IMG/VR virus record: IMGVR_UViG_3300044711_000045
Span: 5,300 to 69,299 of that record
DNA length: 64,000 nt
Strand: one strand, 5' to 3'
DNA from: a virus
Taxonomy: Duplodnaviria; Caudoviricetes
The position numbers and the translations under genes were made by a program. Under the pieces are notes generated by a model. It saw only the letters and a list, made by a program, of their open reading frames with translations, was not told the DNA's origin and did no database searches. This document shows, piece by piece, positions 4,439-35,503 of this stretch; the first letter of the stretch is position 1, and each line of letters starts with the position of its first letter.

Positions 4439-5094
4439 TGCTCATCGATGAACTCCGAGACTCAATACGATGCCAATTAGAGAAGGCAAAGAATCCGACA
4501 GTACTCAGTTCGTTTCAGCGCGATTCCACACTCCTTCTCCACCTGCTCGCGCCAATAGTCAATCTCCCTGTCATCTGGTTTCGGGAGCGAATGAACAAGT
4601 GCGCGGAGCGAACGATACAACAATTGAATCTCACCGTGTACTCCTATCCACCCGCCGACCAATATTTGATCCAATCGGAGAGTACGATAACCTTAGTCTC
4701 GGAATACTCGGTCGGTACAGCGCGATTGCCGAGGTTGCAGGACTTGATCGTGGGCGAAGGGGAATTGAGGATTAACGAGAAGCGTATGGCCCACTTCGAC
4801 TACCCTTTCGATTTAACCCTCTACGGCTATCGGCGGTGTGATCGTCATCCGTTGATCGACGTTGAGTTTGAGCAGGAGTTGGTGTTTGGACCAACGAGAT
4901 TGTTTGCACCGTTGTACGATTTAACCGACGAGCAGGTGCAGCAATGCTGCGATGACTTGGAAATCGCTTGTGATGAATTTGTAGACGATGACATTCCCGT
5001 GAGCGCAGAAACATTTGCACTTATCGAAAGTTGGGAGTGGGATAAAGACACTGCACTTTCCAACTTTAAGACACGTTTCGGACTACCGCATTAG
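4438..5094 (+). CDS. Hypothetical protein
   Basis: 218 aa ORF coupled to both neighbours. No motif recognised. Confidence 0.6.
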   Translation: MLIDELRDSIRCQLEKAKNPTVLSSFQRDSTLLLHLLAPIVNLPVIWFRERMNKCAERTIQQLNLTVYSYPPADQYLIQSESTITLVSEYSVGTARLPRLQDLIVGEGELRINEKRMAHFDYPFDLTLYGYRRCDRHPLIDVEFEQELVFGPTRLFAPLYDLTDEQVQQCCDDLEIACDEFVDDDIPVSAETFALIESWEWDKDTALSNFKTRFGLPH

Positions 5095-5106: not shown

Positions 5107-5655
5107 ATGTCAATAGACGCCATAGGACGCCAACAGGTAACGCTTAGCGCATCGGCAGCGGCTACTGTCGGCCCCGAAGTCACCCAAGTTATCTGCAACG
5201 CTACCTCAGCAGGATTTACGCTGACCTTAACCGACTTCAACGATGGCGCTAAGCACCAATTGGAAGTCTTAATGTCTCCTTCTGACTCCAGTGGAAATGA
5301 CGTAACGATTTCCGGCAATGCGGGAGCGTTTACAACCACGGTGAGCAGTGATGGGTCTACTTCAGTTCTGCTTGAGACGCAATACAACGGGACATGGTTT
5401 GTGGTGGCGGATGTATCCACTGGCAGTGCGGCTGCGGCTAATTCTCGCGCAGTGTCGGCGGGTTTGGCAGCGTCTGGTTCAACTTCAGTAGCTACCAGTC
5501 AGAATGGCTCACAGAGTCAGAACGTTTCCAGCACGCAATCTATCGCTACCAGTGCGGTGCTGAGTGGTGTTTCTGCCACAGCGTCCATTGCCACAAGTCA
5601 GAATGCGTCACAGTCATTGAACGTGTCATCAGCAATGAGCTTGGCTTCATCGTGA
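5107..5655 (+). CDS. Ser/Ala-rich putative virion protein with C-terminal ATSQNxSQSxNVSS repeats
   Basis: RBS AAGGAG upstream. N-terminal beta-rich domain, then two imperfect repeats. Confidence 0.6.
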   Translation: MSIDAIGRQQVTLSASAAATVGPEVTQVICNATSAGFTLTLTDFNDGAKHQLEVLMSPSDSSGNDVTISGNAGAFTTTVSSDGSTSVLLETQYNGTWFVVADVSTGSAAAANSRAVSAGLAASGSTSVATSQNGSQSQNVSSTQSIATSAVLSGVSATASIATSQNASQSLNVSSAMSLASS

Positions 5656-11804: not shown

Positions 11805-13085
11805 ATGCAAAACTCTCTGGTTGGACCTCAAGTATTCAAAGCTAACAGCGTAAGAAGTGGATCGACATTACCGTCGTCGCCTGCGGCTGGGGATGTGTTC
11901 GAGAAAACATCCGGCGGCAATGAGGGGTTTTATGCCGCTGCCAGTGCGGGAGTGTGGAGTGGGCCATTTGGAACAGGCAGTGGCACCGTAACAAGCGTAG
12001 ATGCATCTGGCGGCACCGAGACAACCACCGGCTCTCCCATTACCACTACCGGCACCATTCGTAGTTCAGAGTTGGTAAACGCACGTGGTACCGCCGCGTC
12101 ATACACCATCGCCGATTCTGATCGCGGCAAAGCCATAACCTCTACGCGGGCTTCGGCGGTAGCGTTCACACTGCCTCAGGCGGGTACTGCGGGAGCATTC
12201 GCGTCGGGTTGGTGGTGCGACGTTGTAAAGCCGGGTGGCGCGGGAGTCATAACCATCACCCCTACGGTTTCCACTATCAACAATGGCTTGTCATCTTTGA
12301 CGGTGAGTCAGGGCCAAAGCGTCCGCATTATCAGCGATGGCACGAACTATCAAGTAGCTGCATTGACAGTACCGTATCTAGCGGCTTCGACCTTATGGGG
12401 GCGAGGTTCTGCAGGAGGAACGGGCTTTGGGGAACCGATTGCCCTCGGTGCTAATTTGACAATGAGCGGCACAACGCTGGTGGGCAGCGGCATTTCCGGC
12501 ACCGGCACTGAGAACACTCTGGCTAAGTTTGGGGCGGGAGGAACAAGCGTAGGGAATAGTCAGATAACAGATGATGGAACAGACATTGCGGCGTCTACGC
12601 CGGGAAGCGTTCTTCTTACTTCTACCAATGGACAACACGTAACTTTGGGCGCGGGCACTAACACCGTTGATGTTGATGGAGCAAATGATCAAGTAACCAT
12701 CACGGGACTTTTAGCCTTCACCGCCGCCGCCTCAACAGAATCTCTAGCCATAGACGGAGTAGCACACACAGCAACTCTAACCGCAGCTACCAGTGCTGGG
12801 TTTGTCAGTCCCATCCTAAAGCTATCAACCACTTCAGACCTAACCGCCACACCTACGATCAATACGCCAAGCGGCATTGTGCGTATCGCTGCTGCTGCAT
12901 CTACAGTTACGGTCACTGTCACTGGCATGACCTCTGCTTGGACCGTTCAAGCGACTGTGCGCAGTAACGATACTACTCTCAAAACCGTTAGCGCTCTCCC
13001 TGGTTCCGGCTCCGTAGTTCTAACCGGCAATGCTGCGGCTACGGGAAACACAGACGTGCAAATTCTCGTACTAGCGCCAAACTAA
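11805..13085 (+). CDS. Tail-fibre-like structural protein
   Basis: Likely start ATG 11805 after GAAAGG. G/T/S/A-rich with SYTIADSDRGKAI and STLWGRGSAGG...LGANLTMSGTTL fibre motifs. Confidence 0.65.
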   Translation: MQNSLVGPQVFKANSVRSGSTLPSSPAAGDVFEKTSGGNEGFYAAASAGVWSGPFGTGSGTVTSVDASGGTETTTGSPITTTGTIRSSELVNARGTAASYTIADSDRGKAITSTRASAVAFTLPQAGTAGAFASGWWCDVVKPGGAGVITITPTVSTINNGLSSLTVSQGQSVRIISDGTNYQVAALTVPYLAASTLWGRGSAGGTGFGEPIALGANLTMSGTTLVGSGISGTGTENTLAKFGAGGTSVGNSQITDDGTDIAASTPGSVLLTSTNGQHVTLGAGTNTVDVDGANDQVTITGLLAFTAAASTESLAIDGVAHTATLTAATSAGFVSPILKLSTTSDLTATPTINTPSGIVRIAAAASTVTVTVTGMTSAWTVQATVRSNDTTLKTVSALPGSGSVVLTGNAAATGNTDVQILVLAPN

Positions 13086-13116
13086 GGAGATTCTTGATGA
13101 AGGAAAGGGGCGTAAC

Positions 13117-13308
13117 ATGAAATTCTTTCTTACTATCGCAGTGCTGTTGGTCGCGTCATTTACGGCACATGCTCAATGCCAGAACGGCGATCTCTGGAAG
13201 GTCAACACTTCAACTAAGTTAATGGAGTGCGTTGCTCCGGCTGCGCTACCTGTTTCCAGTGCGGCTCAGGCCGGAACAACGAAGGTGGGTTGGGTAGTAA
13301 TCAACTAA
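13117..13308 (+). CDS. Small secreted protein
   Basis: MKFFLTIAVLLVASFTAHA|Q signal peptide, two Cys. Confidence 0.55.
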   Translation: MKFFLTIAVLLVASFTAHAQCQNGDLWKVNTSTKLMECVAPAALPVSSAAQAGTTKVGWVVIN

Positions 13309-13318
13309 AGGAGTAGCT

Positions 13319-13768
13319 ATGGCAATCAGCGTTCTCACTCTTGATGATTCAGACAAACTCTATAAGTCGGGCACAGGTGCGGCTAAGTCCATATTTCAGT
13401 TTGTCTATGATTTTTCCGTTTTGGGCGGGGCTACCGGCTCCATTCCTCTCACTCAAATCAATGGTCCACTACCAAACAATTTCATCGTTCAGAACGCCTT
13501 CATTGATACGATCTCAGGGCTAACAGGTGGGGCTGGATCGACCGGTGCAGTTACGACCGGACAGGGCGCGGGAGATCTGGTTATTGCTACCGTTATCGCG
13601 GGAGCGCCATTCTCCACGGTTGGGCCTAAGATCACCATTCCACTCTTGGGCACGATTGCCACGTGGATCAAGACTACTGCGCAACGTACTCCAGCGTTGG
13701 TTGTAGCGGTTAATGCTGTGACGGCGGGGAAATTCAACCTTTGGATCGAAGGCGTGCTCAGCGCGTAA
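13319..13768 (+). CDS. Putative capsid decoration/cement-like protein
   Basis: RBS AAGGAG. Beta-sandwich-like composition, YDFSVLGGATG...AGKFNLWIE. Confidence 0.45.
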   Translation: MAISVLTLDDSDKLYKSGTGAAKSIFQFVYDFSVLGGATGSIPLTQINGPLPNNFIVQNAFIDTISGLTGGAGSTGAVTTGQGAGDLVIATVIAGAPFSTVGPKITIPLLGTIATWIKTTAQRTPALVVAVNAVTAGKFNLWIEGVLSA

Positions 13769-13811
13769 GTATGTCTGAATTGTCAGCATCACGCACTAGG
13801 AGTGGTTGTGA

Positions 13812-14234
13812 ATGAATCCATCTCAGTTAATTCAAAGCGTAGTGGCGGCGTTGATTATCGCGGCCATCCTTGGTCTGGCGAAGATGGTCATGGGCAAGGC
13901 CGACAAGTCCGACGTAACCAAGAACTACAATGAGCACAAAGCAGATGATCTCAAAGAACACAACGACATGCGTGAGCTTGTGTCCAAGATGGACGTTAAG
14001 CTGGACGCCGCACTGCTTATTGTCGGGGCGGCGATTACCCGACCAGAACTGGCAGAAAAGATTCTCGCTATGACCGGTCGCTCTGACGACAGGATGGCGC
14101 GGGTAACGGCAGACATCGTGCAACTATTCACCAAGGTTGAGGCTAACGCTAAATCGGGGGTTGAAACGGAAAAGAAGTTAGACGACCTGCCTAGTCGGGT
14201 GCGGACGTTGGAAGAGAATCAAAAGAGAAGCTAA
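13812..14234 (+). CDS. Membrane-anchored coiled-coil protein (possible lysis accessory)
   Basis: N-terminal TM (LIQSVVAALIIAAILGLA) followed by a helical charged region. Confidence 0.5.
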   Translation: MNPSQLIQSVVAALIIAAILGLAKMVMGKADKSDVTKNYNEHKADDLKEHNDMRELVSKMDVKLDAALLIVGAAITRPELAEKILAMTGRSDDRMARVTADIVQLFTKVEANAKSGVETEKKLDDLPSRVRTLEENQKRS

Positions 14235-14298
14235 TTTCCTCACCTACCTGAAGCCTGAGAGGGGGCATGGGACTAAACGACTAAACTTTAACAGAGTA

Positions 14299-15000
14299 TT
14301 AGTTGAGGTGAGGGCGCACGTCAACAAAGTGCGGCACAAACTCGCCTTGAACGCATCCCGGTACGGGGATTAGGTTGTCACCTCGCACGTCAATTCCTTC
14401 TAACGTACTCATTTTTTGATGCCACGACTTCGAGAATTCTTCTCGAATTCCTTTTAAGTTTACTAACAAGTGAAAGCCCGAATGAGTTTTGAGAACCTTC
14501 ACGCAATCGAGATTCAAAATACCGTCAACCTTGGCGAGCGTTGTGTCTAACTCAACGTTATCGAAGTCGAAGTCGTACCAGACTTTGCGACTACAAGCAC
14601 GGTGAATCTCGCTCATGATTTCCTGATGCGGATTGTAGCCGTTATATTCCTGAGTCATGAGCGTGGCAAACTTGATTAGCCCGTTCTTGGTAGCAGCATA
14701 CATATCACGTGGGTTGACGCTGATATACAAAGCTAGTGCCTCTTGCGGAATTGTCTCGCCCTTAATCGAGTATGAATCTAGCGGGCACTCAAGCTGTAGG
14801 ATCTTCTCTCGCAGTCGGTTGGTCTTGGACGTAAACCGTTTGCATTGCGCTTTGTCAGTTTTGATGTTCTTAATCTCAGCGCAATACTTCTTGCGAGCGA
14901 ACAGCGCAACGTAAAAGATTTCATTCTCACGCAATTCGGGAAGCCATTCAATAAAGCTATCCAACAATGCGGAGTCCTTGATTATTTGGTAGTGGCTCAT
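14299..15000 (-). CDS. Archaeo-eukaryotic primase (AEP/PrimPol) superfamily protein
   Basis: Motif I YDFDFD, motif II KTHSGFHLL, motif III GDNLIPVPG. Start overlaps the ligase stop. Confidence 0.7.
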   Translation of the reverse strand: MSHYQIIKDSALLDSFIEWLPELRENEIFYVALFARKKYCAEIKNIKTDKAQCKRFTSKTNRLREKILQLECPLDSYSIKGETIPQEALALYISVNPRDMYAATKNGLIKFATLMTQEYNGYNPHQEIMSEIHRACSRKVWYDFDFDNVELDTTLAKVDGILNLDCVKVLKTHSGFHLLVNLKGIREEFSKSWHQKMSTLEGIDVRGDNLIPVPGCVQGEFVPHFVDVRPHLN

Positions 15001-15620
15001 GCGAAGTCCTTCGTCTTAAGTTTCACGATGAGCCGTGCACCCTTCTTGTCGAACAGAGGTTCAGCCGTTCGGCCTACAAGTCCCTCTGCGGCCATTGGTG
15101 CCATTGCTAACGGTGACTTAAATCCCACTCGCACCATCTCAGTTGCGGCTTCCAATGACATCTCACCAACGAAAGGTACTACATCAATTTCAAGCTTCTC
15201 CGCAACGTCGCAAGTGTTCTCCCAGTTGAGCCACCACTTACCACCAACGAGAACGTCAAACGCAATGAATTTCTTCGACGCTGAATAGCCGCCGCCCTTT
15301 TGAATTCCCGCGCCATAGCCTTCGCCGTAGATTACAGCGGTTGTATCAGGGAACACTTCGGCCAACTTTACGGGGCTAATCAGCTCGTACAGGTGTTTGA
15401 TTAAATCGCCGTGAATCTGCGCGTTGTCAGTCTTGCCGCCAAACGACAGTTTTCCGTCCTGCCAGATGATACGAATGTTCGTACCGTCAATCTTCTCTGT
15501 CCACTGCCAAGTTTTGATTAGTGAGTAGGTACGGTTCTTAAGCTTCGATGGATCGACTTTGAAAGTCGCCATGTCGCGCTCGTAAAGGGTTTCGATTTTG
15601 TGAAAGGGATAGGTTTCCAT
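14997..15620 (-). CDS. ATP-dependent RNA ligase (Rnl2-like adenylyltransferase domain)
   Basis: TEKIDGTNIRI (motif I), YGEGYG (III), FIAFDV (IIIa), EGLVGR (IV), IVKLKTKDF (V). Confidence 0.85.
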   Translation of the reverse strand: METYPFHKIETLYERDMATFKVDPSKLKNRTYSLIKTWQWTEKIDGTNIRIIWQDGKLSFGGKTDNAQIHGDLIKHLYELISPVKLAEVFPDTTAVIYGEGYGAGIQKGGGYSASKKFIAFDVLVGGKWWLNWENTCDVAEKLEIDVVPFVGEMSLEAATEMVRVGFKSPLAMAPMAAEGLVGRTAEPLFDKKGARLIVKLKTKDFA

Positions 15621-15643
15621 TATTCAGTCTCCTGCTGTGACTT

Positions 15644-15730
15644 TGGTGCTAGCGGCTGGACTTGAACCAACACGGCCATAAGGCCAACGGCTTTTAAGGC
15701 CGTCGCGTCTACCAATTCCGCCACGCTAGC
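15644..15730 (-). tRNA. trnL: tRNA-Leu (anticodon UAA), CCA encoded
   Basis: Reverse complement GCTAGCG-TG-GCGGAATTGGTAGACGC-G-ACGGC CTTAAAA GCCGT-long variable arm-GTTGG TTCAAGT CCAGC-CGCTAGC-ACCA. Confidence 0.95.
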
Positions 15731-15788
15731 GTTAATTGTTAATTGATGAATCTAACGACAAGTCCATTAATCAGCCTCCTGTGGCTTT

Positions 15789-15868
15789 GGAAGAACGATG
15801 GTTGCGGTCGCCGGTAACGCTCACGGCTTTCGAGGTTATGAGCCTCGTGTGACCTTGTTCACTTCCCC
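15789..15868 (-). ncRNA. Compact structured element upstream of the tRNA (three-way junction, possible kissing loops)
   Basis: Stems GGAAG.GAAC/GUUCUUCC, GGUC/GACC, CGAGG/CCUCG and GCCG/CGGC. Loop sequences GCUCA and UGAGC are complementary. Strand inferred from the downstream tRNA. Confidence 0.45.
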
Positions 15869-15935
15869 GCACGAGAATAATAACACAGTTGTCAATATCC
15901 CCTTCAATAAAAATCATTTGTACGATAACCGAACT

Positions 15936-16157
15936 ATGCTACACTGCGCACCAATGGGCGACGAGCATCGACATGAGCAGGAGCACGTAATCCGCTTTGA
16001 TCGCGGGCAGCTCAAGGAACTCATAGCAACTGCGAACAAGCTTATTGACCTCTTCGCCGCTAAGGACCAAGCAATCATCAACCGACTCACTCAGAAACTA
16101 AAACAATCAAACGATTCCGTGCAGAAGGCGGAACAAGCTAACGAAGGAGACTTATAA
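15936..16157 (+). CDS. Hypothetical coiled-coil protein
   Basis: Start probably ATG 15936 or 15954 rather than 15798, which lies in the structured element. Coupled to the next gene. Confidence 0.5.
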   Translation: MLHCAPMGDEHRHEQEHVIRFDRGQLKELIATANKLIDLFAAKDQAIINRLTQKLKQSNDSVQKAEQANEGDL

Positions 16158-16366
16158 TGGCAGACTTTAATTCACTTCAGGCGGAAGTAGACCGCGCCGT
16201 GACTTTGGGCAATCGAGCAATCGAGATGCTGCGGGCGATACCGGGCCGTATTCAAGCCGCCGTAGACGCTGACAACCTTGCAGACAATTCAGCCGTAGCG
16301 AAGCTTGCGGAGACGTTGAAGACGGAGAATGATGCACTGTTGGCGGAAGAAGACGCAAACGCCTAA
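16157..16366 (+). CDS. Small acidic helical protein
   Basis: RBS AAGGAG, TAATG coupling on both sides. Confidence 0.65.
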   Translation: MADFNSLQAEVDRAVTLGNRAIEMLRAIPGRIQAAVDADNLADNSAVAKLAETLKTENDALLAEEDANA

Positions 16367-16500
16367 TGCGTCCACGGGCAACTAAAACCTGCGCCGAATG
16401 GTTGACCTACTGCTTATCAATTGGTTGGCAGAAGGACGATCTAGACGCACTTGAAGCATTGTGGTGGAAGTACCATGATGAGTATGGGCGACTAATCTGA
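16366..16500 (+). CDS. 44-aa hypothetical protein (not in track)
   Basis: TAATG coupling. MRPRATKTCAEWLTYCLSIGWQKDDLDALEALWWKYHDEYGRLI. Confidence 0.55.
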   Translation: MRPRATKTCAEWLTYCLSIGWQKDDLDALEALWWKYHDEYGRLI

Positions 16501-16588
16501 TGTGCCACAACGGACGCCATTTGTTTTTCAACAACTCGAAAGTCTGCGCGTGCAAACTCGTGGACTTAACACGATTTCCATCGACACA

Positions 16589-16804
16589 ATGACGATCCTC
16601 TTAATCACACTGGCACTATGGGGCGCGTCAGGTCACGCTGCTTACCATCTCTGCGCACGAGCACCACAGCAAGACCGCAGACCTGATAAGCCCGTGATGC
16701 CGTTACCAGTGGTAGTGTTTTATTTAGGAGGGCCACTGGCACTATTGGTGGAGATTGCGGCTCATGTGCGCTTGAAGCGGACAGGATTGAAGTTGGTCCA
16801 CTGA
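16589..16804 (+). CDS. Small membrane protein
   Basis: Two hydrophobic segments. Confidence 0.45.
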   Translation: MTILLITLALWGASGHAAYHLCARAPQQDRRPDKPVMPLPVVVFYLGGPLALLVEIAAHVRLKRTGLKLVH

Positions 16805-16910
16805 CGACTAACGACTTTCCAGCAACTCACCCAGTCCCGCCTTCTTCAACAGGAATGCGTGTCGTGCATGGGTGAGTTGATGGGAGCCTTAGTTGAAGGA
16901 CGGTGAGGTA

Positions 16911-17225
16911 GTGAAGAGGTTTCGCAAAAAGCCGATAGTGGTTGAGGCGGTCCAATGGAACGTAGGCGGTGCGCTTCTGGGCCGTGAATGCGAGGATTGT
17001 GACGCTGTAAGAGGCACAAGCTACCTCGAAATCAATCAAATGCTTGGGACTTCCGGTTGCTCGAACGACGAGACTATGTGGGATTGGTCGCGCATGGGTA
17101 TAATCGAGACATTGGAAGGCAAGCATGTCGTAACGCCAAACGATTGGATCATCAAGGGCGTTAAGGGTGAGTTTTATCCGTGCAAGTCGGACATCTTTGA
17201 GGCGACCTACGAGGCGGTAGAGTAG
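16911..17225 (+). CDS. Conserved phage hypothetical protein (KKPIVVEAVQW...GEFYPCKxDIFxxTYE type)
   Basis: GAGGT RBS then GTG 16911. Motif frequent in phages. Confidence 0.75.
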   Translation: MKRFRKKPIVVEAVQWNVGGALLGRECEDCDAVRGTSYLEINQMLGTSGCSNDETMWDWSRMGIIETLEGKHVVTPNDWIIKGVKGEFYPCKSDIFEATYEAVE

Positions 17226-21178: not shown

Positions 21179-21347
21179 ATTGAGACTGCGGCGGCGTGGA
21201 GGTCTGAGACTATAAATCGTTCGCAGGAACGACGAAGGACACGCTGACATGGAGTGCACTCCGAAACATCAAGCCAGATAGTGAGCGAAAGCCATACTTG
21301 TGCGAATGCTGGCATAGTTGGTATCAAGCCCAACTCGCAGTCTCAAT
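21179..21347 (+). ncRNA. tRNA-like ncRNA copy A
   Basis: 12-bp terminal stem ATTGAGACTGCG/CGCAGTCTCAAT, D-like arm GCGT-GGA[35 nt]AGGAC-ACGC, T-like arm GTTGG-TATCAAGC-CCAAC. Confidence 0.75.
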
Positions 21348-24612: not shown

Positions 24613-24745
24613 GAATTGCGCGGGGTCGGGCTTAATACCGACTATGAGTTTGCTCCACGGCGCTACGAACTTAATCTGCTGGCCCGTGCGGGTTCGCGCC
24701 TCCAGCGCCCCTGCCTGCGTGTCCTTCCACGCCGCCCGCGCATTC
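24613..24745 (-). ncRNA. tRNA-like ncRNA copy B
   Basis: Reverse complement GAAT-GCGCGGG-CG-GCGT GGAAGGAC ACGC-...-CATA-GTCGG TATTAAGC CCGAC-CCCGCGC-AATTC. Confidence 0.75.
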
Positions 24746-26816: not shown

Positions 26817-26992
26817 GCGACTTTCTCTCCTGTCTCAAAGTCGATCAACTCCAACTCTGCGCCGCACGCCTCGCATTGCTTACTACTACATCCGACAATG
26901 TTTCCCGTACAGCAACATTCATCCCACTCGTTTACTTCGCCAACGCAGAGACAGAATGGTTGCGACATGCAGACTCGTTGTGTATCGCTCAT
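26813..26992 (-). CDS. 59-aa Cys-rich protein (not in track)
   Basis: ATGA overlap with the MTase stop. MSDTQRVCMSQPFCLCVGEVNEWDECCCTG...CEACG. Confidence 0.55.
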   Translation of the reverse strand: MSDTQRVCMSQPFCLCVGEVNEWDECCCTGNIVGCSSKQCEACGAELELIDFETGEKVA

Positions 26993-29283
26993 GCAAGTGC
27001 TTCCTTGAACAATGTATCTTGCTCCATTGCGGATTCGGCGTTGCGCAAATTAGCAACAGCCTGTTTCCAGTACGAGAACTTTAATTCATCTCCCTCAAAT
27101 CTGCGCCCCATTGGAATTGCCTTATAACCTTCTGATCCTATGCCCGCGAATGGGGAGTAAACCAGATCGCCGGGATTGGTCCATAGTTGCAATGCTCGTT
27201 CAATAACTTGTAGCTGGAGGGGTGCGATGTGGCGCTCATCGCGTTCTTCTCTAGCCGATTCGCGTTGCAGAGTGTCAGATGGATCAATGTCCATCCAGAC
27301 AGGTGAAGCGTATCGTTGCCAGATGTTGATTGAGTTCCGTGTTTCTGTTGTCGGGACCGGAAACTCTGGGTTCCAATGATTGTCAGTCTCCATTGAAGGA
27401 TCATCGCCAACATAATAATTAAGCGCTCCTGTTACTCGTTCAGGATTGTCACCGGGCTTGCGCATAGTGACAAGATAATCCGGTATGCCCTGCCGACTCA
27501 TGCACGAGTCTTTCACTAACTGCCTATGCAGCAATCCCAGTGCTTTCGTTCGTTGCATAGCCGTGACAGGATTTTTCCAAATACATACCTCACTATGATA
27601 GATAAACCCCGCGTCCTGAAATATGCGAATCAGATCCCCGCGAAAGTCACTGATCCCGATTACTCCGTCACGTTCTTTACTTGTTGGTAAATTCATACAA
27701 TGCACTGACATTAATCGTCCCGGCATGAGAATGCGATACAACTCACTGGTAAGGAATTTGAAGTGTTCGTAAAACTCTGCGTGGGTGCGCACGTTGCCCA
27801 TGTCGCGTCCGCTGGCACTGTACGTATATAAGCTAGCAAAAGGCGGAGAGTAAATAGAAAAATGGACTGAATCATCAGCCATGCTTCTCGCGCCTTCAAC
27901 GCAATCACCCAATCTCACTTTCCATCCCTGCCCACTTTCAACTTTCGTCTGATAGCTATCCGACTGCTTCACGGTTTGATGTAACGCTTCCACGCTGTAC
28001 ACACTCATATGTTTAACCATTTCCTTTGCCATTCGTGCGGCGTCAGCTTCTTTCCGTTCTATATTCCTCACGACTGCGCCTTCCGCTTCACTGCTGAATA
28101 CATGACAGTTGACGGGCTTGGTTTGACCAAATCGCCAACACCTGCGAATGGCCTGATACCATTGCTCCCACGAGTCGCTTAGACCTACGAACCCGACATT
28201 TGCACAATGCTGGTAGTTCATGCCCCACCCGCAGATCGACGGCTTACTAACGAGAACACGAAACCTTCCCTCACTGAATCCAAGCATCCGATCTTCTTTA
28301 TCAGTATCCTTATCGCGTCCGGCAACTTGTACCGCGTCAGGGATCAGCTTGGTTAATTGATCTCCCTCATCGTTGAGATCGCACCAGATCAACCACGGCT
28401 CCGTTGACTCATTCACTAATGCCGCGCACATTTCAACGCGTTCATTCAAACTATTACGTCTGGCCTGCCGTCGTTCCATAAGAGATTGGGCCTCAGTTGC
28501 GAATAGGAATCCGTCAAGGTGCCGTGTGTTCTTAACGACGTGGTGATGGTAATTGAGAGGCGGTAGTACGAATCCATCGTTGTCGTAGCCAAGGTCTGAG
28601 GGTTGCCGTAGCATCACCGCCCAAGCGCAAACCCATTTCCAGTATTCTTCTTCAGCATGGCCCTTCAATCTCCACTTGGAAGTCTCACCGCCATCGTGGA
28701 CGAAGAACGTAGATAGCATTTCCGTCCTTGTCAGTACCCCTAGAAACTCACTATGGTTTCCGAGTTCCATATGATCGTTCGGGGCTGGAGTCGCAGTACA
28801 CGCTAACCTCATAGGTGTATTGCCAAACGCTTCGATTAATTGATTGCGTGTTGTGCCTGTGAATGATTTGAGGATTGAGCTTTCATCGAGTACTACGCCG
28901 CCAAACGCAGACGGATCGAAGTGGTGCAACTTCTCATAATTTGTAATGTAAATCCCCGGCCTAACTACGTCCGATTGTTCAACGGCAACGTGTGCCTCAA
29001 TTCCAAACTTCTGCCCCTCTCTTACTGTTTGTTTTGACACCGCAAGCGGGGCGAGAATCAACACCGGCTTGTTCACGCGCCTCACGACCTGCTCAGACCA
29101 GTCCAATTGTTGTAAAGTTTTCCCGGTGCCACAATCTTCAAATAGGGCTGCTTTTCCGCGCTCCAGCGCCCATCGCGTAATGTCCGCTTGAAATGGAAAT
29201 AGTGCGGGGTTGAGAGCGTCAGGCGTAAACCCACTCGCTGTAATCTCAATTCGCTTACTGGCTAGGAAGTCGTTGTAATCCAT
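26989..29283 (-). CDS. SNF2-like helicase fused to amino-DNA methyltransferase (N4C/N6A, beta class)
   Basis: DCGTGKT, VLDESSIL, TATPAPND, QAIRRCWRFGQ helicase motifs, then SPPF (motif IV) and SPFAGIGS (motif I). Start ATG 29283 coupled to the clamp stop. Confidence 0.9.
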   Translation of the reverse strand: MDYNDFLASKRIEITASGFTPDALNPALFPFQADITRWALERGKAALFEDCGTGKTLQQLDWSEQVVRRVNKPVLILAPLAVSKQTVREGQKFGIEAHVAVEQSDVVRPGIYITNYEKLHHFDPSAFGGVVLDESSILKSFTGTTRNQLIEAFGNTPMRLACTATPAPNDHMELGNHSEFLGVLTRTEMLSTFFVHDGGETSKWRLKGHAEEEYWKWVCAWAVMLRQPSDLGYDNDGFVLPPLNYHHHVVKNTRHLDGFLFATEAQSLMERRQARRNSLNERVEMCAALVNESTEPWLIWCDLNDEGDQLTKLIPDAVQVAGRDKDTDKEDRMLGFSEGRFRVLVSKPSICGWGMNYQHCANVGFVGLSDSWEQWYQAIRRCWRFGQTKPVNCHVFSSEAEGAVVRNIERKEADAARMAKEMVKHMSVYSVEALHQTVKQSDSYQTKVESGQGWKVRLGDCVEGARSMADDSVHFSIYSPPFASLYTYSASGRDMGNVRTHAEFYEHFKFLTSELYRILMPGRLMSVHCMNLPTSKERDGVIGISDFRGDLIRIFQDAGFIYHSEVCIWKNPVTAMQRTKALGLLHRQLVKDSCMSRQGIPDYLVTMRKPGDNPERVTGALNYYVGDDPSMETDNHWNPEFPVPTTETRNSINIWQRYASPVWMDIDPSDTLQRESAREERDERHIAPLQLQVIERALQLWTNPGDLVYSPFAGIGSEGYKAIPMGRRFEGDELKFSYWKQAVANLRNAESAMEQDTLFKEALA

Positions 29284-30389
29284 TAAAGCCTCATGCTCGC
29301 AATCACGCACTTAAAGTTAGATTCATTCTCACTAAACAGCGGCCATGAGTTACTGTCACCTAGTTCGCACGTGACATTTTCGCCCGCGTGAGTTAAGTAA
29401 CTATTCAGGTAATCAGGATTGATGCCTATCTCGATGTTGTTACCGTTGAGATTACTGGTAATGGTTATTGGCTCCGACGCCTCACCTTTTTGGGTAGCAG
29501 TTTCGATGATTAATGAATCTGATGAGAACGTGAATTTCATCCCACTGTTAGCGCGTTCGTCTCTGGTCACGGCAGCGCGTTTCAGCGCGGAAGTAAACGC
29601 CTTGCTGTTAAATTCCACTTGATGCGAGTGCTTAGGAATAATCATGCGCCAGTTGGGTAAACTACCCTCTATCAAGTGACAGACTACCTTACGCGGACCA
29701 CGTTGAAAGCCAATGAGCGTGGAGCCAACTTCGATAGTAACTGACCCATCTTCCATGCCTAGTAGCGGTTTTAATCCGACAGCGGATGCTAAGATTGAGA
29801 AGGTTGGTGCAGTTCCTTTAATTGTCTCGTAACCCAGTCGATGCGAGTCGGACGCCGCTAATGTTAACCCATCCTCACCGCCTTCAAACTGCACACCGTA
29901 TTGCCATGCGGGACAGTTATCTTCAGATGATGCACATGGGATAATGCGAGTGAGCGCGGCAATGAGGCCATCGCTTACAGTGAACGTTTGCGGGTGACTA
30001 ACCACATCAAGCTTCGGATACTCCTCCACTTCCCAAAACGGTAACTTATGCTTCGACTTCCCACCTTGTACGAGGATGCGGCCTGCGCCCTTGCCGTCGC
30101 GGTCAATAGTGAATGAGACATCTTCACACTCAAACAACGATACAAGACGATGCAGCTCTCGTAACGGTAGACAGAATGCATCATGCTCAACGGTTAGTGC
30201 CGCTGGCAACTCCACTTCACTGATCATGGTAATATCCAACGATGACGCAGTGAGAGTTAATCGCTCGTCCCAACCCATCATGACGGATTCGAGTACGGGG
30301 ATCGTGGACTTCTTTGCGAGGACAGTAACTAACAGCGCCAACTCTTCCCGCAAAACTTTTCGGTTAATTGAGAAAGTGGTGGTGGTCAT
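29283..30389 (-). CDS. dnaN: DNA polymerase III beta sliding clamp
   Basis: KSTIPVLE, LTASSLDITM, LAASDSHRLG, LIEGSLPNWRMIIP, IGINPDYL, VIASMRL. Confidence 0.9.
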   Translation of the reverse strand: MTTTTFSINRKVLREELALLVTVLAKKSTIPVLESVMMGWDERLTLTASSLDITMISEVELPAALTVEHDAFCLPLRELHRLVSLFECEDVSFTIDRDGKGAGRILVQGGKSKHKLPFWEVEEYPKLDVVSHPQTFTVSDGLIAALTRIIPCASSEDNCPAWQYGVQFEGGEDGLTLAASDSHRLGYETIKGTAPTFSILASAVGLKPLLGMEDGSVTIEVGSTLIGFQRGPRKVVCHLIEGSLPNWRMIIPKHSHQVEFNSKAFTSALKRAAVTRDERANSGMKFTFSSDSLIIETATQKGEASEPITITSNLNGNNIEIGINPDYLNSYLTHAGENVTCELGDSNSWPLFSENESNFKCVIASMRL

Positions 30390-30567
30390 TGCGCGACCTC
30401 GTAGTATGCCTTTGCCGCTTTCCATCCCGCTTCGTAGTCCTTACACAATCCGTGCGGGTGCGTCTCGTGGAACATAAACTCCGCTTGTGCGCGCAAGTCG
30501 CGCTCAGCATCAGTCTCGCTCACCGTCTCCGGTGCTTTGATTGCTATTTCAACTTTGGCTTCCATTC

Positions 30568-30813
30568 CTACTCTCCCCTTCCTTTACAATACCTATCAAT
30601 AGCGCGGTGTAAGTCGATCTTATTATTGACATGATCGTTCCCGTGCCACTTCTCAGCAGCAACGACCACGGGCACCATGCGTTCCACGGCTTCAATAAGC
30701 ACGCTTAACCATGGACCGTCGAAGTTCCACGCTTGAGTAACGTCGTGTTGCCACTCTTTTGCGTCTTGTAATGCTTGTTCAATTGTCAGTTTCGTAGTCT
30801 TCGTCTCGCTCAT
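30568..30813 (-). CDS. Hypothetical protein
   Basis: Coupled ORF (MSETKTTKL...). Confidence 0.5.
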   Translation of the reverse strand: MSETKTTKLTIEQALQDAKEWQHDVTQAWNFDGPWLSVLIEAVERMVPVVVAAEKWHGNDHVNNKIDLHRAIDRYCKGRGE

Positions 30814-31046
30814 TCTGTAACCTCTCGCAACGGACATCTCTCTGGTGGTTCATGATCCTGCTCTACCCGACGATAACGCCAATGGTAGCGATCCACGTCA
30901 CCCTGATTTGTGAAACTTTCAATAGAATGCCTATGTCCACAAGTCGCCTTGGGACCACCCGGCGTAAACGCTCCTGAGTGACAAACAAACGGACACTCGC
31001 CGCAAGTATTGATGGTTAAAGTTACCGACCTACCCATTACGCGCAC
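30810..31046 (-). CDS. Cys-rich small protein
   Basis: CGECPFVCH...CGH...CPL. Confidence 0.55.
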   Translation of the reverse strand: MRVMGRSVTLTINTCGECPFVCHSGAFTPGGPKATCGHRHSIESFTNQGDVDRYHWRYRRVEQDHEPPERCPLREVTE

Positions 31047-31414
31047 CCGTCGATTAGTTGCTGGATGCGGGCGGCGGCTTGCTTGGGCGTGTGAATATCC
31101 ATGTCATAAAACAGAGTAGATTCACGCAGAGTTAGCCCTACCTCTTGTCGCGCCGCCTGCAAAGGGTTACTCACCTTGCGTCCGGTAGGAGACAGAAAAT
31201 CAACACCAAGCACGGAGTCGAGATAGCGATTTCTCTTTCCCGTACGAGGTCGTGTCTTATAGCCGCAGAGGTCGAGAATGTGTCCACCAATGCACATCTG
31301 ACTGCCGCAGTCTGTTTCAACTGCGATTACAGCCATGTTGAAATGTTTCGGATGCCGCATTCTCAAAAATCTCATTCGCAACCGTTTCAGTAGTTCAACA
31401 TTCTTCTTTGCCAT
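31037..31414 (-). CDS. Hypothetical phage protein
   Basis: AAGG RBS. HFNM...CGSQMCIGGH. Confidence 0.65.
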   Translation of the reverse strand: MAKKNVELLKRLRMRFLRMRHPKHFNMAVIAVETDCGSQMCIGGHILDLCGYKTRPRTGKRNRYLDSVLGVDFLSPTGRKVSNPLQAARQEVGLTLRESTLFYDMDIHTPKQAAARIQQLIDGCA

Positions 31415-31463
31415 TGTTACCTTCCTTCCTCACTCGATTACAGCGTTGGCACTGGCGTCTTCG

Positions 31464-31868
31464 TTACCAATCTCCTCCCGCTCCACCCCCTCCAAAATCT
31501 CCGCCACCGCTTGAGTCGCCCACACTTGAACCGCTGTCACTTGAATACGAATCTGACGACGGCGATGAGTAGTCACTAGCGGAGCTAATGATTGAGTCTG
31601 CGATGAAGAAATCAGTTAGCGATGAGTCTGATAGCGTATTAGGTTGCTGTACAAGCTCATGAGTTCTCGACGTGTAAGTTTGCGGCACGTACGTTGACGC
31701 AGCGCGTTTCTCGTAAGGCTGAGACGGCATGTATTGTGGACGATAACGCCGTGGCGATATAAGGTTGTCACTTAACCGAGTCGTCCGCTTTGGCTTTCGT
31801 AGAATCAATGCCAATAGCCCTACCGAACCGATAATCACAATCGCGCCAACAATCAATAACGTAATCAT
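31464..31868 (-). CDS. Membrane protein with Ser/Gly-rich tail
   Basis: N-terminal TM, C-terminus SSGGGDFGGGGAGGDW. Confidence 0.7.
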   Translation of the reverse strand: MITLLIVGAIVIIGSVGLLALILRKPKRTTRLSDNLISPRRYRPQYMPSQPYEKRAASTYVPQTYTSRTHELVQQPNTLSDSSLTDFFIADSIISSASDYSSPSSDSYSSDSGSSVGDSSGGGDFGGGGAGGDW

Positions 31869-31940
31869 TTTAATCTCCTTTTAGTCGTCATCACCCTCAC
31901 CCACCCCTTCGCTTCCGGCGCAGTGGTAGCGCCTCACTCA

Positions 31941-32444
31941 CTACTCGCTCACAATCTCTCTCAACCTCACCTCAACGCGCTCGTTCACATCGTCAACACT
32001 TGACCAACTCCCACTCTTAACTCGTGAGTCGTCAAACCCGCACTTCTCCGCAATCAAATCCAGTATCACCTTGACGCAATTGTGCGTGTCTAACCGCCGC
32101 AACTTCCCGTTCTTGCAGTGTTGGCGGTAGTGGAAGGTTAGATCCACGTTGAGCAGCGAATCCGTAGTCAGCCGTAGACGTGGAATAGAAGGTTTCGATT
32201 GACTGCGCCATAGTCTCACTTCCGGCTTCAATTCTACCTTGCGTTGACTCCAGATCACCTGATGAAGCGAATTCACGCTAGGGGGTAGGTCGGGAATGAT
32301 GAAGGTGTAGACTCCTTGCTCGTCATTGCTGTCACCCTCACCCACACTGCCACCATTCCCGTACCCACCCGCCATCACGTGCCCCCTTAACTTGCAGCGC
32401 GGAAATTCGCCACGATATTGGAGTAGTCCCCTGTCCCAACCCAT
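31941..32444 (-). CDS. RusA-like Holliday junction resolvase
   Basis: LPPSVNSL...RLDTHNCVKVILDLI...GFDDSRV. True start probably internal. Confidence 0.75.
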   Translation of the reverse strand: MGWDRGLLQYRGEFPRCKLRGHVMAGGYGNGGSVGEGDSNDEQGVYTFIIPDLPPSVNSLHQVIWSQRKVELKPEVRLWRSQSKPSIPRLRLTTDSLLNVDLTFHYRQHCKNGKLRRLDTHNCVKVILDLIAEKCGFDDSRVKSGSWSSVDDVNERVEVRLREIVSE

Positions 32445-32962
32445 TTACCGCCCGGTTCCGCTGGCGGCGTTTGGATTTCCTTGCGCTGAATGTCCGCGAC
32501 GACCTCCTGATTCAACAATCCTTCAAGAAACTCATCGTTGATCCTTGGCGGCGCAGCAGGATCAAACCCCATCGCTTTCAAAAACATCTTCGTTTGAAAT
32601 CGCGCCTTCGTTTTGTAGTGGTCAGTGTTGAGGTCGGGGTAGTCGGTTGTGTTCGCCACAAGCAGCAAGTCTTGAAAGAAGTGCTTGTTGGCGTACTTGC
32701 CCTCACCGTCAACCCCAAGTGGACCAACCACCAGATCCAACGCGAGAAACTTCTTCCGCCACGCAACCTCACCCTGCTTCACGTAGTCGCGCACTGACGC
32801 CTTGCGAATCTCGAAGCGAACCTTACTCGCCTTCTCAATGACATCATTCCCCTCTTGGTCTGAGAGATCTCCAATATCCACGGGATCGGTAATATCGAAT
32901 CCCTCATCCCCATCCGTCTCACCGTAATCAATTGCTGATGCTGATGCTGATGCTTCTGACAT
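32387..32962 (-). CDS. Putative ssDNA-binding protein (DUF669-like)
   Basis: Acidic N-terminus, OB-like pattern, adjacent to AAA_24 and nuclease genes. Confidence 0.6.
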   Translation of the reverse strand: MSEASASASAIDYGETDGDEGFDITDPVDIGDLSDQEGNDVIEKASKVRFEIRKASVRDYVKQGEVAWRKKFLALDLVVGPLGVDGEGKYANKHFFQDLLLVANTTDYPDLNTDHYKTKARFQTKMFLKAMGFDPAAPPRINDEFLEGLLNQEVVADIQRKEIQTPPAEPGGKWVGTGDYSNIVANFRAAS

Positions 32963-32999
32963 TTGTTTTTAGTCTCCTTGTTTAGTCTTGTGTTGCTGG

Positions 33000-33938
33000 T
33001 TAATTGACTTTAGCCGCCGTTGTAGGCGTGGCCGTGGGAGGTGGAGCAATTGCAGGCTTAGCTGTTGTCGCTGTCGCCGCAGTCGCACTACCCTTCACTC
33101 GTAGTGAATTCATAATAGCTTCATAGAGAGATTTATCGGTTAAGTCCAATCGCGCCGGGAGGCCGAAGCGGTTCTTAGCGTTCACGATTGTTCCCAATCC
33201 CGGCGCAAGTCCGCAGATCGCTTCATAGACAACCTTCCCTTCCTTAATTCTTCTATCAAGGTAGATTGACGCACCAAACAGCCCTTCTGCCCGTGCGCGA
33301 AAACCACCCTCAATCAATGGCGCAATGTCGGAGTTTAACGCCACCTTCTTAGCGCGGTTCTTTATCTTGTCCGACCCTTGCACCGTCTCCTCACTCTCGC
33401 GTTTCAAGTGGAAGGTGCAGATTACGTTTAGCCCGTTGCGCGTTGCCATTGTGAGTAGGTCGGAAGCGAAGAAGCGTTGCAGATATAGACCAAGATTCCT
33501 ATACATTGCCTGTGAATTTTTTTCCCCCGACTTCTCGCTGCGCACTTCTTCAAACTCACAGATTGCTTGCCACTTCATGTCTACGAAATAGTTAGCGCCG
33601 TCCATAACAAGCGTGTCGATTTCGCCTTTCGCCGCTAGTTCCCTACAGTGAGCGAGACAGCCATAGACGGAATCGCGCTCATCGCTCCTTGCTGTTTCTC
33701 GAAACAGTTTCTTTAATTCCACTTCACTCTCGTTGTGCAGTTCCTCAAACCAGACAAGATTATCGAGAAACTTTTTATTCGTGGGTTGTCGCAGTGTTTC
33801 TAATCCCGCCGGGTCGCAGGAGATCGTATAGCAACGCGGGAACGAATGCGCTTGCAGGGTCTTACCGCCTCCAAAGTAGGAGTTAATCATCGCGGTAATC
33901 GTAGGTTTGCGGTTAAGGAAGTCGGACGGAGATGGCAT
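33000..33938 (-). CDS. AAA_24-type P-loop ATPase (recombination module)
   Basis: SYFGGGKT Walker A, TLVMDG Walker B, AKNRFGLP. Confidence 0.75.
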   Translation of the reverse strand: MPSPSDFLNRKPTITAMINSYFGGGKTLQAHSFPRCYTISCDPAGLETLRQPTNKKFLDNLVWFEELHNESEVELKKLFRETARSDERDSVYGCLAHCRELAAKGEIDTLVMDGANYFVDMKWQAICEFEEVRSEKSGEKNSQAMYRNLGLYLQRFFASDLLTMATRNGLNVICTFHLKRESEETVQGSDKIKNRAKKVALNSDIAPLIEGGFRARAEGLFGASIYLDRRIKEGKVVYEAICGLAPGLGTIVNAKNRFGLPARLDLTDKSLYEAIMNSLRVKGSATAATATTAKPAIAPPPTATPTTAAKVN

Positions 33939-34123
33939 AGAATTCGTTTACCTTTCTTGTGCTTGTATCCACGGCATATGAGCCATTGGAGAAGGTTTGT
34001 GGTTGTAGTTTTCAGTTAAGCAGAGACGCAACTTTGCACGATATTTAAACACGCCCATGCGGGTCGTAAGTTAAGACACGTCTAAGGTGCCTCATTGCGT
34101 CTCCTTCCCCTTGCAAGGGATTT

Positions 34124-34336: not shown

Positions 34337-34482
34337 CAGTTCTCCTTATCTTCAATCGTAAACAGTTTCTGGGATGAACACTCAGGACACTGCTCAACAT
34401 ACGCCGTGGCGAAATCAAGTCCTACCGCAACCGCCTCATCGTCATTGAACGTTAACGCGCAATTGCTACAGTAGATCATCAC

Positions 34483-35430: not shown

Positions 35431-35440
35431 TGCGAGGGAC

Positions 35441-35469: not shown

Positions 35470-35503
35470 CTAAAATCTTTCAAATTCTTTCTTAAAATTC
35501 TTA

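Follow-up and report, generated by a model that had tools for sequence, protein, structure and literature searches.

A phage cassette joining a tRNA, a minimal RNA ligase and a stand-alone AEP-fold protein: a candidate RNA-repair module

In the contest between phages and the bacterial defences that cut tRNAs, RNA repair stands at the front. A complete phage genome of 69.3 kb bears a small inverted operon in which a tRNA-Leu(UAA) is joined by an RNA ligase and by a protein of the AEP (primase-polymerase) fold, and this combination raises a question: does the AEP protein work with the ligase on RNA, does it prime DNA synthesis for the phage, or do the three genes lie together by chance? The window, to which all coordinates refer, is the whole stretch of 64,000 nucleotides of that genome that was analysed (positions 5,300 to 69,299 of IMG/VR record IMGVR_UViG_3300044711_000045).

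Architecture of the cassette

The three elements share the minus strand and, since the genes on either side (13812-14234 and 15798-16157) are both on the plus strand, form a cassette that runs counter to each of its flanks. First comes the tRNA-Leu(UAA) (15644-15730, minus strand), a class II tRNA with a long variable arm and an encoded CCA that can be read at 15646-15644. It is the only tRNA that ARAGORN finds in the window, as tRNA-Leu(taa), and the Rfam model RF00005 confirms it over 15647-15730, scoring 59.4 bits where the gathering score is 29. A spacer of only 23 nt (15621-15643, minus strand), with an AGGAG ribosome-binding site 8 nt upstream of the ligase ATG, separates the tRNA 3' end from the ligase gene (14997-15620, minus strand, 207 aa), suggesting that tRNA and ligase are co-transcribed. 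No promoter-like or terminator-like site was reported in this spacer, and a scan of 13700-16300 stayed at background level. The ligase ORF in turn overlaps that of the AEP protein (14299-15000, minus strand, 233 aa) by the four nucleotides ATGA (GCA-TGA / ATG-AGC), which indicates co-translation of the two, the AEP gene being predicted to be translationally coupled to the ligase. Both the orientation of the three elements, antisense to their neighbours, and the 4-nt overlap had been part of the original prediction, and both stand. When 13000-17000 was compared with the phage collection by megablast, nothing matched.

It could be argued that these are three independent "morons" brought together by chance: the tRNA would merely add to the decoding of UUA/UUG, the ligase would act on its own account, for instance in RNA repair or circularisation, and the AEP protein would do something unrelated, perhaps in DNA damage tolerance or by making small oligonucleotides for defence or counter-defence. 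The tRNA does have an ordinary use, because UUA and UUG make up 36.6% of the leucine codons of the phage. The co-translation indicated by the ATGA overlap argues against a chance assembly, which we consider doubtful in view also of the gene neighbourhoods described below.

A minimal ligase and an AEP-fold protein

The ligase ORF belongs to PF09414 (RNA_ligase; E 2.9e-17, 63.8 bits, cut-off 27) and also matches the RNA ligase family phrog_548 of PHROGs. It contains motif I (K43-x-D-G-x-N), motif IV (E179-G-x-V-G-R) and motif V (K200-x-K202), and residues K43, D45, G46, N48, E100, F121-D122, E179-G180, K200 and K202 are invariant in the alignment of its family (A4). The ligase profile aligns with the N-terminal domain of T4 Rnl2 (1S68/2HVQ) over motifs I, III, IIIa, IV and V, but the protein ends five residues past motif V, at 207 aa versus 334 aa in T4 Rnl2, and scores only 28.7 bits with TIGR02307, the model of Rnl2 proper, well short of the equivalog cut-off of 197.15. 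Judging from its sequence, it is an Rnl2-like nucleotidyltransferase domain alone, with all ligase motifs intact and the Rnl2 C-terminal domain absent. That domain is required in Rnl2 for the RNA-adenylylation step. AF2 modelled the ligase poorly (pLDDT 60.6), and this model was left out of the fold searches. As had been noted from the window, no Pnkp or phosphatase accompanies the ligase: the PNK-type kinase family AAA_33, the calcineurin-type phosphoesterase family Metallophos and the RlaP family have no member in the whole 69.3-kb genome, and the cassette neighbours show no end-healing kinase or phosphatase domain in Pfam or PHROGs.

The 233-aa protein escapes the curated sequence models, with no match in Pfam (E<=0.1), PHROGs or NCBIfam; phmmer and profile searches against PDB sequences returned only noise and no AEP protein, and neither PF09250 (Prim-Pol) nor PF24387 (AEP-like) matches anywhere in the genome. 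Its assignment comes from motifs and fold. With the motif definitions of PMC5862659, all three AEP motifs are present: the metal-binding motif I (hhhDhD/E) as V-W-Y-D143-F-D145-F-D147, the nucleotide-binding motif II (sxH) as S/G-G175-F-H177 and the metal-binding motif III (hD/E) as I-D204-V-R-G207-D208. Residues D143, D145, D147, T172, G175, H177, D204, G207 and D208 are invariant in 21 diverse homologues of the family (alignment A1). In the AF2 model (pLDDT 93.3), motif I lies on strand 141-147, motif II on 175-181 and motif III on 203-207, and the model contains the N-terminal alpha/beta unit and the RRM-like unit of the AEP catalytic fold. The best 12 PDB rows from VIA-align are all AEP enzymes and span residues ~5-231. 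The scores were Z 9.6 for RepB' (rmsd 3.2, 143 aligned), 9.1 for S-2L PrimPol, 8.4-8.5 for PriS, 7.2 for the M. tuberculosis LigD PolDom and 6.7 for Prim-PolC, bearing in mind that Z values of 8-10 are only moderately above the stated background of the tool (7-8). Foldseek gives a probability of 0.98 to 6zp9, with nothing in the PDB at E<=0.001; eIF4E and others came first by its E-value and were rejected, given a TM of about 0.2 versus 0.4-0.57 for the AEP matches. The third gene is thus predicted to encode an AEP-fold enzyme that has intact catalytic motifs. The original description of the two proteins as an "Rnl2-type" ligase and an "AEP primase-like" protein can therefore be kept in part: the first label fits the nucleotidyltransferase domain but neither the C-terminal domain nor the TIGR02307 score (28.7 vs 197), and the second is backed by the invariant motifs and a high-confidence fold although no profile library confirms it, the suggested comparison of an AlphaFold model with PriS, PrimPol and LigD-Pol having come out as an AEP fold.

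Such a fold could mean that the protein is the DNA primase or primase-polymerase of the phage, serving its RepA-like AAA_25 helicase and beta clamp and lying beside the ligase and tRNA only incidentally. The best structural matches are indeed replicative or plasmid primases (RepB', S-2L PrimPol, PriS), and the phage encodes a RepA-like helicase without a primase domain (36071-37066), a beta clamp and a Dda-like helicase, while a search of the 69.3-kb genome for another primase or DNA polymerase gave no Toprim_2, Prim-Pol, PF24387 or PolA match. There are, however, a number of points that make such a role distinctly improbable: (i), 21 kb separate the AEP gene from the replication module, and the gene is on the strand opposite to its neighbours and coupled to an RNA ligase; (ii), at 233 aa the protein consists of the AEP core alone, with no zinc finger, PriCT or helicase-binding extension; (iii), other complete phages with a member of the family encode DnaG/Toprim primases of their own (clearly in G023, over the cut-off in G009, below the cut-off in G002 and G014); (iv), the family occurs in bacterial chromosomes beside tRNAs, RNA ligases, RlaP and RtcB, and helicase- or polymerase-type neighbours are rare (ResIII 2, AAA_24 2 and DNA_pol_A 2 of 138 viral neighbours).

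Gene neighbourhoods of the AEP family

The AEP family comprises about 780 clusters at 50% identity and has no Pfam model. Its members are stand-alone proteins of ~225 aa, found in bacteria and phages and annotated "hypothetical" everywhere; the long members, checked for domain fusions, have only short Cys-rich or unassignable extensions. Cultured carriers are the Chryseobacterium phages MA9V-1, where the orthologue is gene MA9V1_229, and MA9V-2 and isolates of Emticicia, Chitinophaga, Runella and myxobacteria. We surveyed the neighbours of the AEP gene in 70 other loci (43 from bacterial genomes and 27 from IMG/VR), plus 7 close metagenome relatives.

RNA ligases are the commonest neighbours in the 70 loci, of the Rnl5 type in 11 and of the Rnl1 type in 3, every neighbour cluster other than Rnl5 reaching 6 at most. 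They are followed by RlaP, RtcB, Ro60/TROVE, Band-7 and EndoV-like genes, and by tRNA genes or arrays. On the upstream side the top family is PF09414 with the PHA02142 OB domain (7 members), and on the downstream side the top families are RlaP (5), EndoV (4) and RtcB (2). RNA ligases are again the top family when the viral loci are taken alone (PF09414 with 3 members, PF09511 with 2), and at the genome level 10 of the 25 AEP-positive viral records hold a PF09414 match. Ku and DNA-ligase families are absent from the 25 most frequent neighbour families in the three tallies. The position beside the AEP gene can be filled by different ligases, minimal Rnl2-like, Rnl5 (TIGR02306, 178.6 bits), Rnl1 (PF09511) or RtcB; tblastn with the window ligase found nothing in the bacterial loci and was misleading because other ligase families are present there, as the Pfam search showed. 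The order ligase then AEP with gaps of at most 20 nt is found in three lineages (the window with its 4-nt overlap, L151, the Emticicia islands and L057); in the Emticicia islands and the viral L057 the gap is 12-20 nt and the ligase is of another family than that of the window. AEP is followed by RlaP after 7-10 nt in L036, L037 and L050.

In 12 of the 70 loci a tRNA gene is found no more than 1 kb from the AEP gene; some of these have a single AEP gene with tRNAs on one side and housekeeping genes (cheA-like, dnaX) on the other, and the genes inspected there include no integrase. That such adjacency stems from mobile elements integrating at tRNA genes was considered and rejected for L001 and L002, where the genes beyond AEP are cheA-like and dnaX and not integrases. 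The richest loci are the Emticicia-type islands, in which AEP is accompanied by Rnl5, RtcB, Ro60/TROVE, Band-7, an EndoV-like gene and up to 14 tRNA genes, with a calcineurin-like phosphoesterase also present in one of them (L043); being closely related, these loci amount to one or two events.

The link to the ligase is nevertheless facultative. About one quarter of the AEP loci have an RNA-repair gene within 6 kb, most AEP genes being solitary in varied contexts, and the flanks vary even among relatives that are 70-82% identical. Four of the seven close metagenome relatives (L152, L153, L154 and L156) have at least 1 kb upstream of AEP and no ligase; in L153 and L156 this upstream region encodes a pentapeptide-repeat protein and a WD40 protein, neither RNA-related. 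Seen from the ligase, the family of the window has no conserved neighbour at all, and AEP is found in 0 of its 80 phage loci. The tRNA is missing even from L151, the nearest relative with both ligase and AEP protein. The conservation of the pair, which the original prediction had made a point to check, thus extends to AEP with RNA ligases in general (Rnl5/DRB0094, Rnl1, RtcB) but not to this particular ligase. That ligase and AEP mostly occur apart, that AEP flanks change between near relatives and that most loci lack repair genes is what a set of unrelated morons would predict. Yet the ligase-then-AEP order recurs with another ligase family, RNA-repair families rank at the top on both sides of AEP in independent samples, and a quick tree of the family requires the linkage to a ligase to have been gained or lost about 6 times, well-supported branches forcing at least 3 of these changes, so that the linkage with RNA-repair genes appears to have arisen several times.

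All in all, a role in RNA or tRNA repair is better supported than DNA priming because the family recurs beside RNA ligases, RlaP, Ro60, Band-7 and tRNAs and because other phages that have it carry DnaG/Toprim primases. That the AEP protein is an RNA-end polymerase that works with RNA ligases on damaged tRNA, rather than a DNA primase, is a proposal to which we give an even chance. In one variant of this proposal, AEP would be a true primase that synthesizes a short complementary splint on the broken RNA. Nicked duplexes are what Rnl2 and DraRnl/Rnl5 ligases seal, and the splint would act by creating the nicked duplex that Rnl2- or Rnl5-type ligases prefer. Partner ligases of these types are found beside AEP and its fold is closest to de novo primases, but RtcB and Rnl1, which need no splint, are partners too and the adjacency to RlaP suggests end-filling chemistry; we see only a slim chance for this variant.

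Proposed role and comparison with known systems

We hypothesize that the cassette is an accessory module that keeps tRNA usable during infection: it would supply a spare tRNA-Leu(UAA) together with a minimal nick-sealing RNA ligase and a stand-alone AEP polymerase acting on RNA ends. A tRNA or another translation RNA would be cut or trimmed by a host nuclease, the AEP enzyme would restore or extend its 3'-OH end with NTPs, and perhaps also bridge the two fragments, much as LigD-type AEP polymerases do with broken DNA, and the co-translated ligase would then seal the 3'-OH/5'-phosphate junction. The substrate of AEP is presumed to be RNA, in particular tRNA cut by host defence nucleases, and the enzyme would add nucleotides or fill gaps instead of priming de novo; it may also compensate for the missing C-terminal domain of the ligase. 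A healing-independent route, and the tRNA-like RNAs of the window as substrates, both suggested in the original prediction, stay purely speculative. Extending this to the whole family, we tentatively propose, with somewhat less than even confidence, that it is a dedicated RNA-repair polymerase which, with nick-sealing RNA ligases, does for RNA what the LigD machine does for DNA breaks: phages would use it alongside a spare tRNA, in Bacteroidota it would be part of islands that also contain a tRNA array, Rnl5, RtcB, Ro60 and Band-7, and it may stand in for the C-terminal domain of minimal ligases. If so, it would be the first prokaryotic AEP enzyme with a demonstrated physiological RNA substrate, taking the primase-polymerase superfamily beyond DNA into prokaryotic RNA maintenance and explaining a widespread family annotated "hypothetical". 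An AEP-fold enzyme for RNA ends would also be a new enzyme class in RNA repair: to our knowledge the enzymes that restore nucleotides (RlaP, the CCA-adding enzyme, Thg1) are all of other folds. The Emticicia-type islands, with their tRNA arrays and RNA-repair genes, are of interest in their own right.

The closest functional parallel is RlaP (PF10127), also a small stand-alone nucleotide-adding enzyme that is found beside RNA ligases (ATP-dependent ones and RtcB) in phages and bacteria (PMC12776372, PMC7824862). Damaged RNA 3' ends receive 1-2 NMPs from RlaP ahead of ligation, and over-trimmed tRNA does not regain its function without this enzyme (PMC12776372). It is nevertheless a Pol-beta nucleotidyltransferase, of a fold unrelated to that of AEP, and the two are not simply interchangeable since AEP lies directly beside RlaP genes in L036, L037 and L050. 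The polymerase domains of bacterial LigD/NHEJ (PolDom, Prim-PolC) share with AEP the fold and, if the proposal holds, the work alongside an ATP-dependent ligase on broken ends; LigD, however, acts on DNA with Ku, whereas the partners here are RNA ligases, RlaP, RtcB, Ro60 and tRNAs, and sequence similarity between LigD and the AEP protein is undetectable.

AEP domains have been tied to RNA repair before, from genomic context as here, by Burroughs and Aravind (2016); according to Kazlauskas et al. (2018; PMC5862659) these are divergent domains inside multidomain proteins, primarily of kinetoplastids, a description that sets them apart from our stand-alone family of ~225 aa in bacteria and phages. 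The RNA-repair systems of Burroughs and Aravind combine a ligase, a nucleotidyltransferase, an end-modifying enzyme and a scaffold, of which the window has only the ligase and, with AEP, a candidate nucleotidyltransferase. T4 tRNA repair (Rnl1 with Pnkp) and phage tRNA replacement are comparable in that a single phage genome encodes both an RNA ligase and a spare tRNA, presumably against host tRNA nucleases. The phage of the window does not belong to the T4 type since it has neither Pnkp nor another end-healing enzyme, and it differs further in that its ligase has an Rnl2-like nucleotidyltransferase domain, not that of Rnl1, and in that an AEP enzyme is added. Finally, tRNA arrays co-regulated with rtcB have been described in cyanobacteria (2021, PMC8421152); that paper makes no mention of a primase, and three mentions of "RNA ligase" in it concern RtcB. 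The Emticicia-type islands similarly join up to 14 tRNA genes to RtcB and other RNA-processing genes, and the cassette of the window resembles a one-tRNA version of such an arrangement.

Anatomy of the cassette and its AEP-fold protein

The virus record is complete (69,299 bp with direct terminal repeats; the window covers its bases 5300-69299), and the predicted three-element cassette is real, ORF calling, ARAGORN and Rfam placing it exactly where it had been drawn. On the minus strand, tRNA-Leu(taa) (15644-15730; ARAGORN and the Rfam tRNA model, 59.4 bits) is followed after 23 nt by the 207-aa RNA ligase ORF (14997-15620; preceded by AGGAG) and then by the 233-aa archaeo-eukaryotic primase (AEP)-fold ORF (14299-15000; identified by fold and motifs), ligase stop and AEP start overlapping in ATGA; both flanking genes lie on the plus strand. 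The tRNA is the single one that ARAGORN finds in the window, and the sole Rfam match there; the "tRNA-shaped ncRNAs" also proposed (21179-21347 and 24613-24745) match neither by ARAGORN nor by the Rfam tRNA model at its gathering threshold. UUA and UUG make up 36.6% of the leucine codons of the phage, and tRNA-Leu(UAA) may act as a replacement tRNA, a codon supplement, or both.

The 233-aa protein has no match in Pfam, PHROGs or NCBIfam, and the Pfam Prim-Pol and AEP-like models hit nothing in the whole genome. The AEP assignment holds up at the level of structure: the AlphaFold2 model (pLDDT 93) places motifs I-III on three strands, and the first twelve matches in a search against representative structures are AEP enzymes, spanning residues 5-231, with Z scores of 9.6 for RepB', 9.1 for cyanophage S-2L PrimPol, 8.4-8.5 for human and archaeal PriS, 7.2 for LigD PolDom and 6.7 for Prim-PolC. 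Foldseek agrees weakly (6zp9, probability 0.98, TM 0.47/0.57); in a viral structure library the closest models belong to stand-alone phage proteins of ~230 aa that are uncharacterised, and primase-helicases come next. The family is large (946 sequences by word-indexed search; 783 clusters at 50% identity by exhaustive search, 206 of them below 1e-30), and nearly all of its members are unnamed proteins of 220-250 aa; public records give the gene as hypothetical, as in the Chryseobacterium phages MA9V-1 and MA9V-2. Invariant residues among 21 diverse members include D143, D145 and D147, T172, G175 and H177, and D204, G207 and D208, whose order and spacing are those of AEP motifs I (hhhDhD), II (sxH) and III (hD) (PMC5862659). 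Zinc finger, PriCT and helicase module are all absent; judged from alignment and model, the protein consists of the AEP catalytic core alone, its predicted active site intact. In 14 loci (within L001-L047; one of them L001:5965-6666, minus strand) long ORFs that run antisense to the AEP gene form one cluster, most likely because the sense gene is so well conserved and not because they are genes in their own right.

A ligase reduced to its catalytic domain

The ligase scores 63.8 bits against PF09414 (cut-off 27) and also matches phrog_548; more than 7,900 of the 8,000 candidates scored match its family, whose alignment shows 72% mean column identity and invariant motifs I (K43xDGxN), IV (E179-G-x-V-G-R) and V (K200xK202). 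Its designation as Rnl2-type stands for the catalytic domain, where all motifs align to the nucleotidyltransferase domain at the N terminus of T4 Rnl2, but fails beyond it: the family profile stops at the end of that domain and the Rnl2 equivalog model scores 28.7, far under its cut-off of 197, so that the protein is an Rnl2-like catalytic domain lacking the Rnl2 C-terminal domain. The isolated N-domain of T4 Rnl2 reportedly self-adenylylates and seals pre-adenylylated nicks while being poor at RNA adenylylation; by analogy, if this behaviour holds here, the minimal ligase may need a partner. This ~205-aa nucleotidyltransferase-only ligase (window 14997-15620; loci L071-L150) is a very widespread and highly conserved phage gene. 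Across 80 IMG/VR loci of its family no conserved neighbour was found, and none of the 80 has an AEP within 5 kb; tRNA genes lie within 5 kb of it in 14 of these loci and abut it in three (L072, L117, L137).

AEP neighbourhoods and the primase alternative

From the side of the AEP, 43 bacterial-genome loci (mostly Bacteroidota, also Myxococcota, Acidobacteriota and one Pseudomonadota), 27 IMG/VR loci and seven close metagenome relatives were sampled. ORF clustering within 6 kb gives an Rnl5-type ligase as the commonest neighbour (11 of 70 loci; the next cluster is in 6). In Pfam tallies of the two genes on either side, RNA_ligase with a PHA02142 OB domain leads upstream (7), then PcfJ (5), and RlaP leads downstream (5), then EndoV (4) and RtcB (2); in viral loci alone RNA ligases lead (PF09414, 3 members; Rnl1-type PF09511, 2). 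The AEP precedes RtcB in L010, RlaP in L050 and two successive RlaP genes in L036 and L037; it ends a tight Rnl1-Rnl5-AEP operon in L057, sits between Rnl5 and Rnl1 in L063, and has calcineurin-like phosphoesterases nearby in L059, L061 and L067. The ligase-then-AEP order with gaps of at most 20 nt occurs with the minimal ligase (the window and its metagenome relative L151) and with Rnl5 (the Emticicia clade and L057), and in 12 of the 70 loci the AEP gene has tRNA genes no more than 1 kb away. On a quick maximum-likelihood tree, ligase linkage changes about six times, and well-supported branches force at least three of these changes. Four RNA-sealing enzyme families thus alternate as partner from one AEP clade to another, and such a swap of equivalent partners is a classic signature of a functional link.

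Emticicia-type islands carry, co-oriented, ClpP, PcfJ, Rnl5 (TIGR02306, 178.6 bits), the AEP, up to 14 tRNA genes with EndoV-like, Ro60/TROVE and Band-7 genes between them, then RtcB. Such combined tRNA-array and RNA-repair islands occur in Bacteroidota loci L004, L006, L009, L011, L013, L015 (2059-12661) and L043. In three, an EndoV-like gene directly follows tRNA-Arg(ACG) (L011:7488-8111, L013:3764-4398, L015:8149-8783); this is the bacterial tRNA with inosine at position 34, EndoV cuts next to inosine, and a functional pairing is possible. The L013 array also holds two ARAGORN 'tRNA-???' genes with two-base anticodons (4965-5038 and 5173-5262), possibly unusual or degenerate tRNA-like genes. 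The islands and AEPs of L004 (filed under a Chitinophaga pinensis MAG) and L013 (filed under a Cyanobium MAG) nest within the clade of Emticicia and have very short branches there, reflecting either mis-binned contigs or very recent transfer.

Repair genes are an optional companion of the AEP: roughly three quarters of its loci have none within 6 kb, and PF09414 matches anywhere in 10 of 25 AEP-positive viral records, many of which are fragments. Of the seven metagenome sequences closest to the window AEP, L151 alone carries the ligase, four others (L152, L153, L154, L156) have at least 1 kb of upstream sequence without it, all seven lack the tRNA, and flanks are unrelated. Pairing with the minimal ligase is not conserved, but pairing with RNA ligases as a class, the commonest AEP neighbours, recurs. 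Five contig sizes shared by the AEP and ligase match lists (16547, 1624, 7041, 1685, 47730) suggest that at least five more contigs may carry both genes. In Pyrinomonadaceae the AEP gene stands alone, with co-oriented tRNA genes on one side and housekeeping genes (cheA-like, dnaX) on the other; none of the genes checked is an integrase.

Could the AEP instead be the DNA primase of the phage? Gene content alone would allow it: DNA polymerase and primase families could not be recognised anywhere in the complete genome (Toprim_2, Prim-Pol and PolA gave no match), which does possess, in a replication module at 26989-44382, an SNF2 helicase-DNA methyltransferase fusion (26989-29310), a beta clamp (29283-30425), a RepA-like AAA_25 helicase with a winged-helix tail (36071-37066) and a Dda-like helicase (37185-38528), as well as a Sak4-like protein and a Cas4-like nuclease. 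Yet this module lies 21 kb from the AEP gene, which is coupled to an RNA ligase; of five complete AEP phages checked, one (G023) has a clear DnaG-type primase (DNAG_N 71.5 and Toprim_2 36.4 bits, both within a single 606-aa frame), another (G009) has a primase match over cut-off and two more have sub-threshold Toprim matches; and bacterial carriers have their own DnaG. We thus consider a primase role unlikely. Immediately upstream of the RepA-like helicase gene, and overlapping its start, a 109-aa GIY-YIG-like ORF (35745-36074, plus strand) may be a homing-endonuclease remnant.

A possible role in RNA repair and comparison with known systems

We propose that the AEP would extend or fill RNA 3' ends so that the adjacent ligase could seal them, possibly also holding the RNA fragments together during repair. 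Extension or filling appears the most economical reading by analogy, because RlaP occupies the same genomic niche and LigD-type AEP polymerases do an analogous job at DNA breaks, where they use ribonucleotides and bridge ends. RlaP, for which a role in replacing nucleotides lost to nucleases such as RloC had first been predicted (PMC7824862), extends damaged RNA 3' ends by one or two NMPs, and over-trimmed tRNA is not restored without it (PMC12776372). A rarer alternative, to which we give very little weight, would have the AEP prime a short splint and so create the nicked duplex that ligases of the Rnl2 and Rnl5 types prefer. The window phage encodes no kinase or phosphatase, as the original prediction had noted for Pnkp, and ligase and AEP would therefore handle breaks with 3'-OH and 5'-phosphate ends or rely on host healing enzymes; a "healing-independent route" is a conjecture.

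RNA-repair systems that join a ligase to a nucleotidyltransferase are already known. In the searchable literature no account was found of a stand-alone prokaryotic or phage AEP family tied to RNA ligases, RlaP, RtcB and tRNA arrays, a prior mention in a key 2016 paper being possible. AEP domains predicted to act in RNA repair are reported to belong to multidomain proteins, primarily of kinetoplastids (PMC5862659); the present family differs in being stand-alone and prokaryotic or phage-borne, and its interest lies mainly in a prediction that is directly testable.
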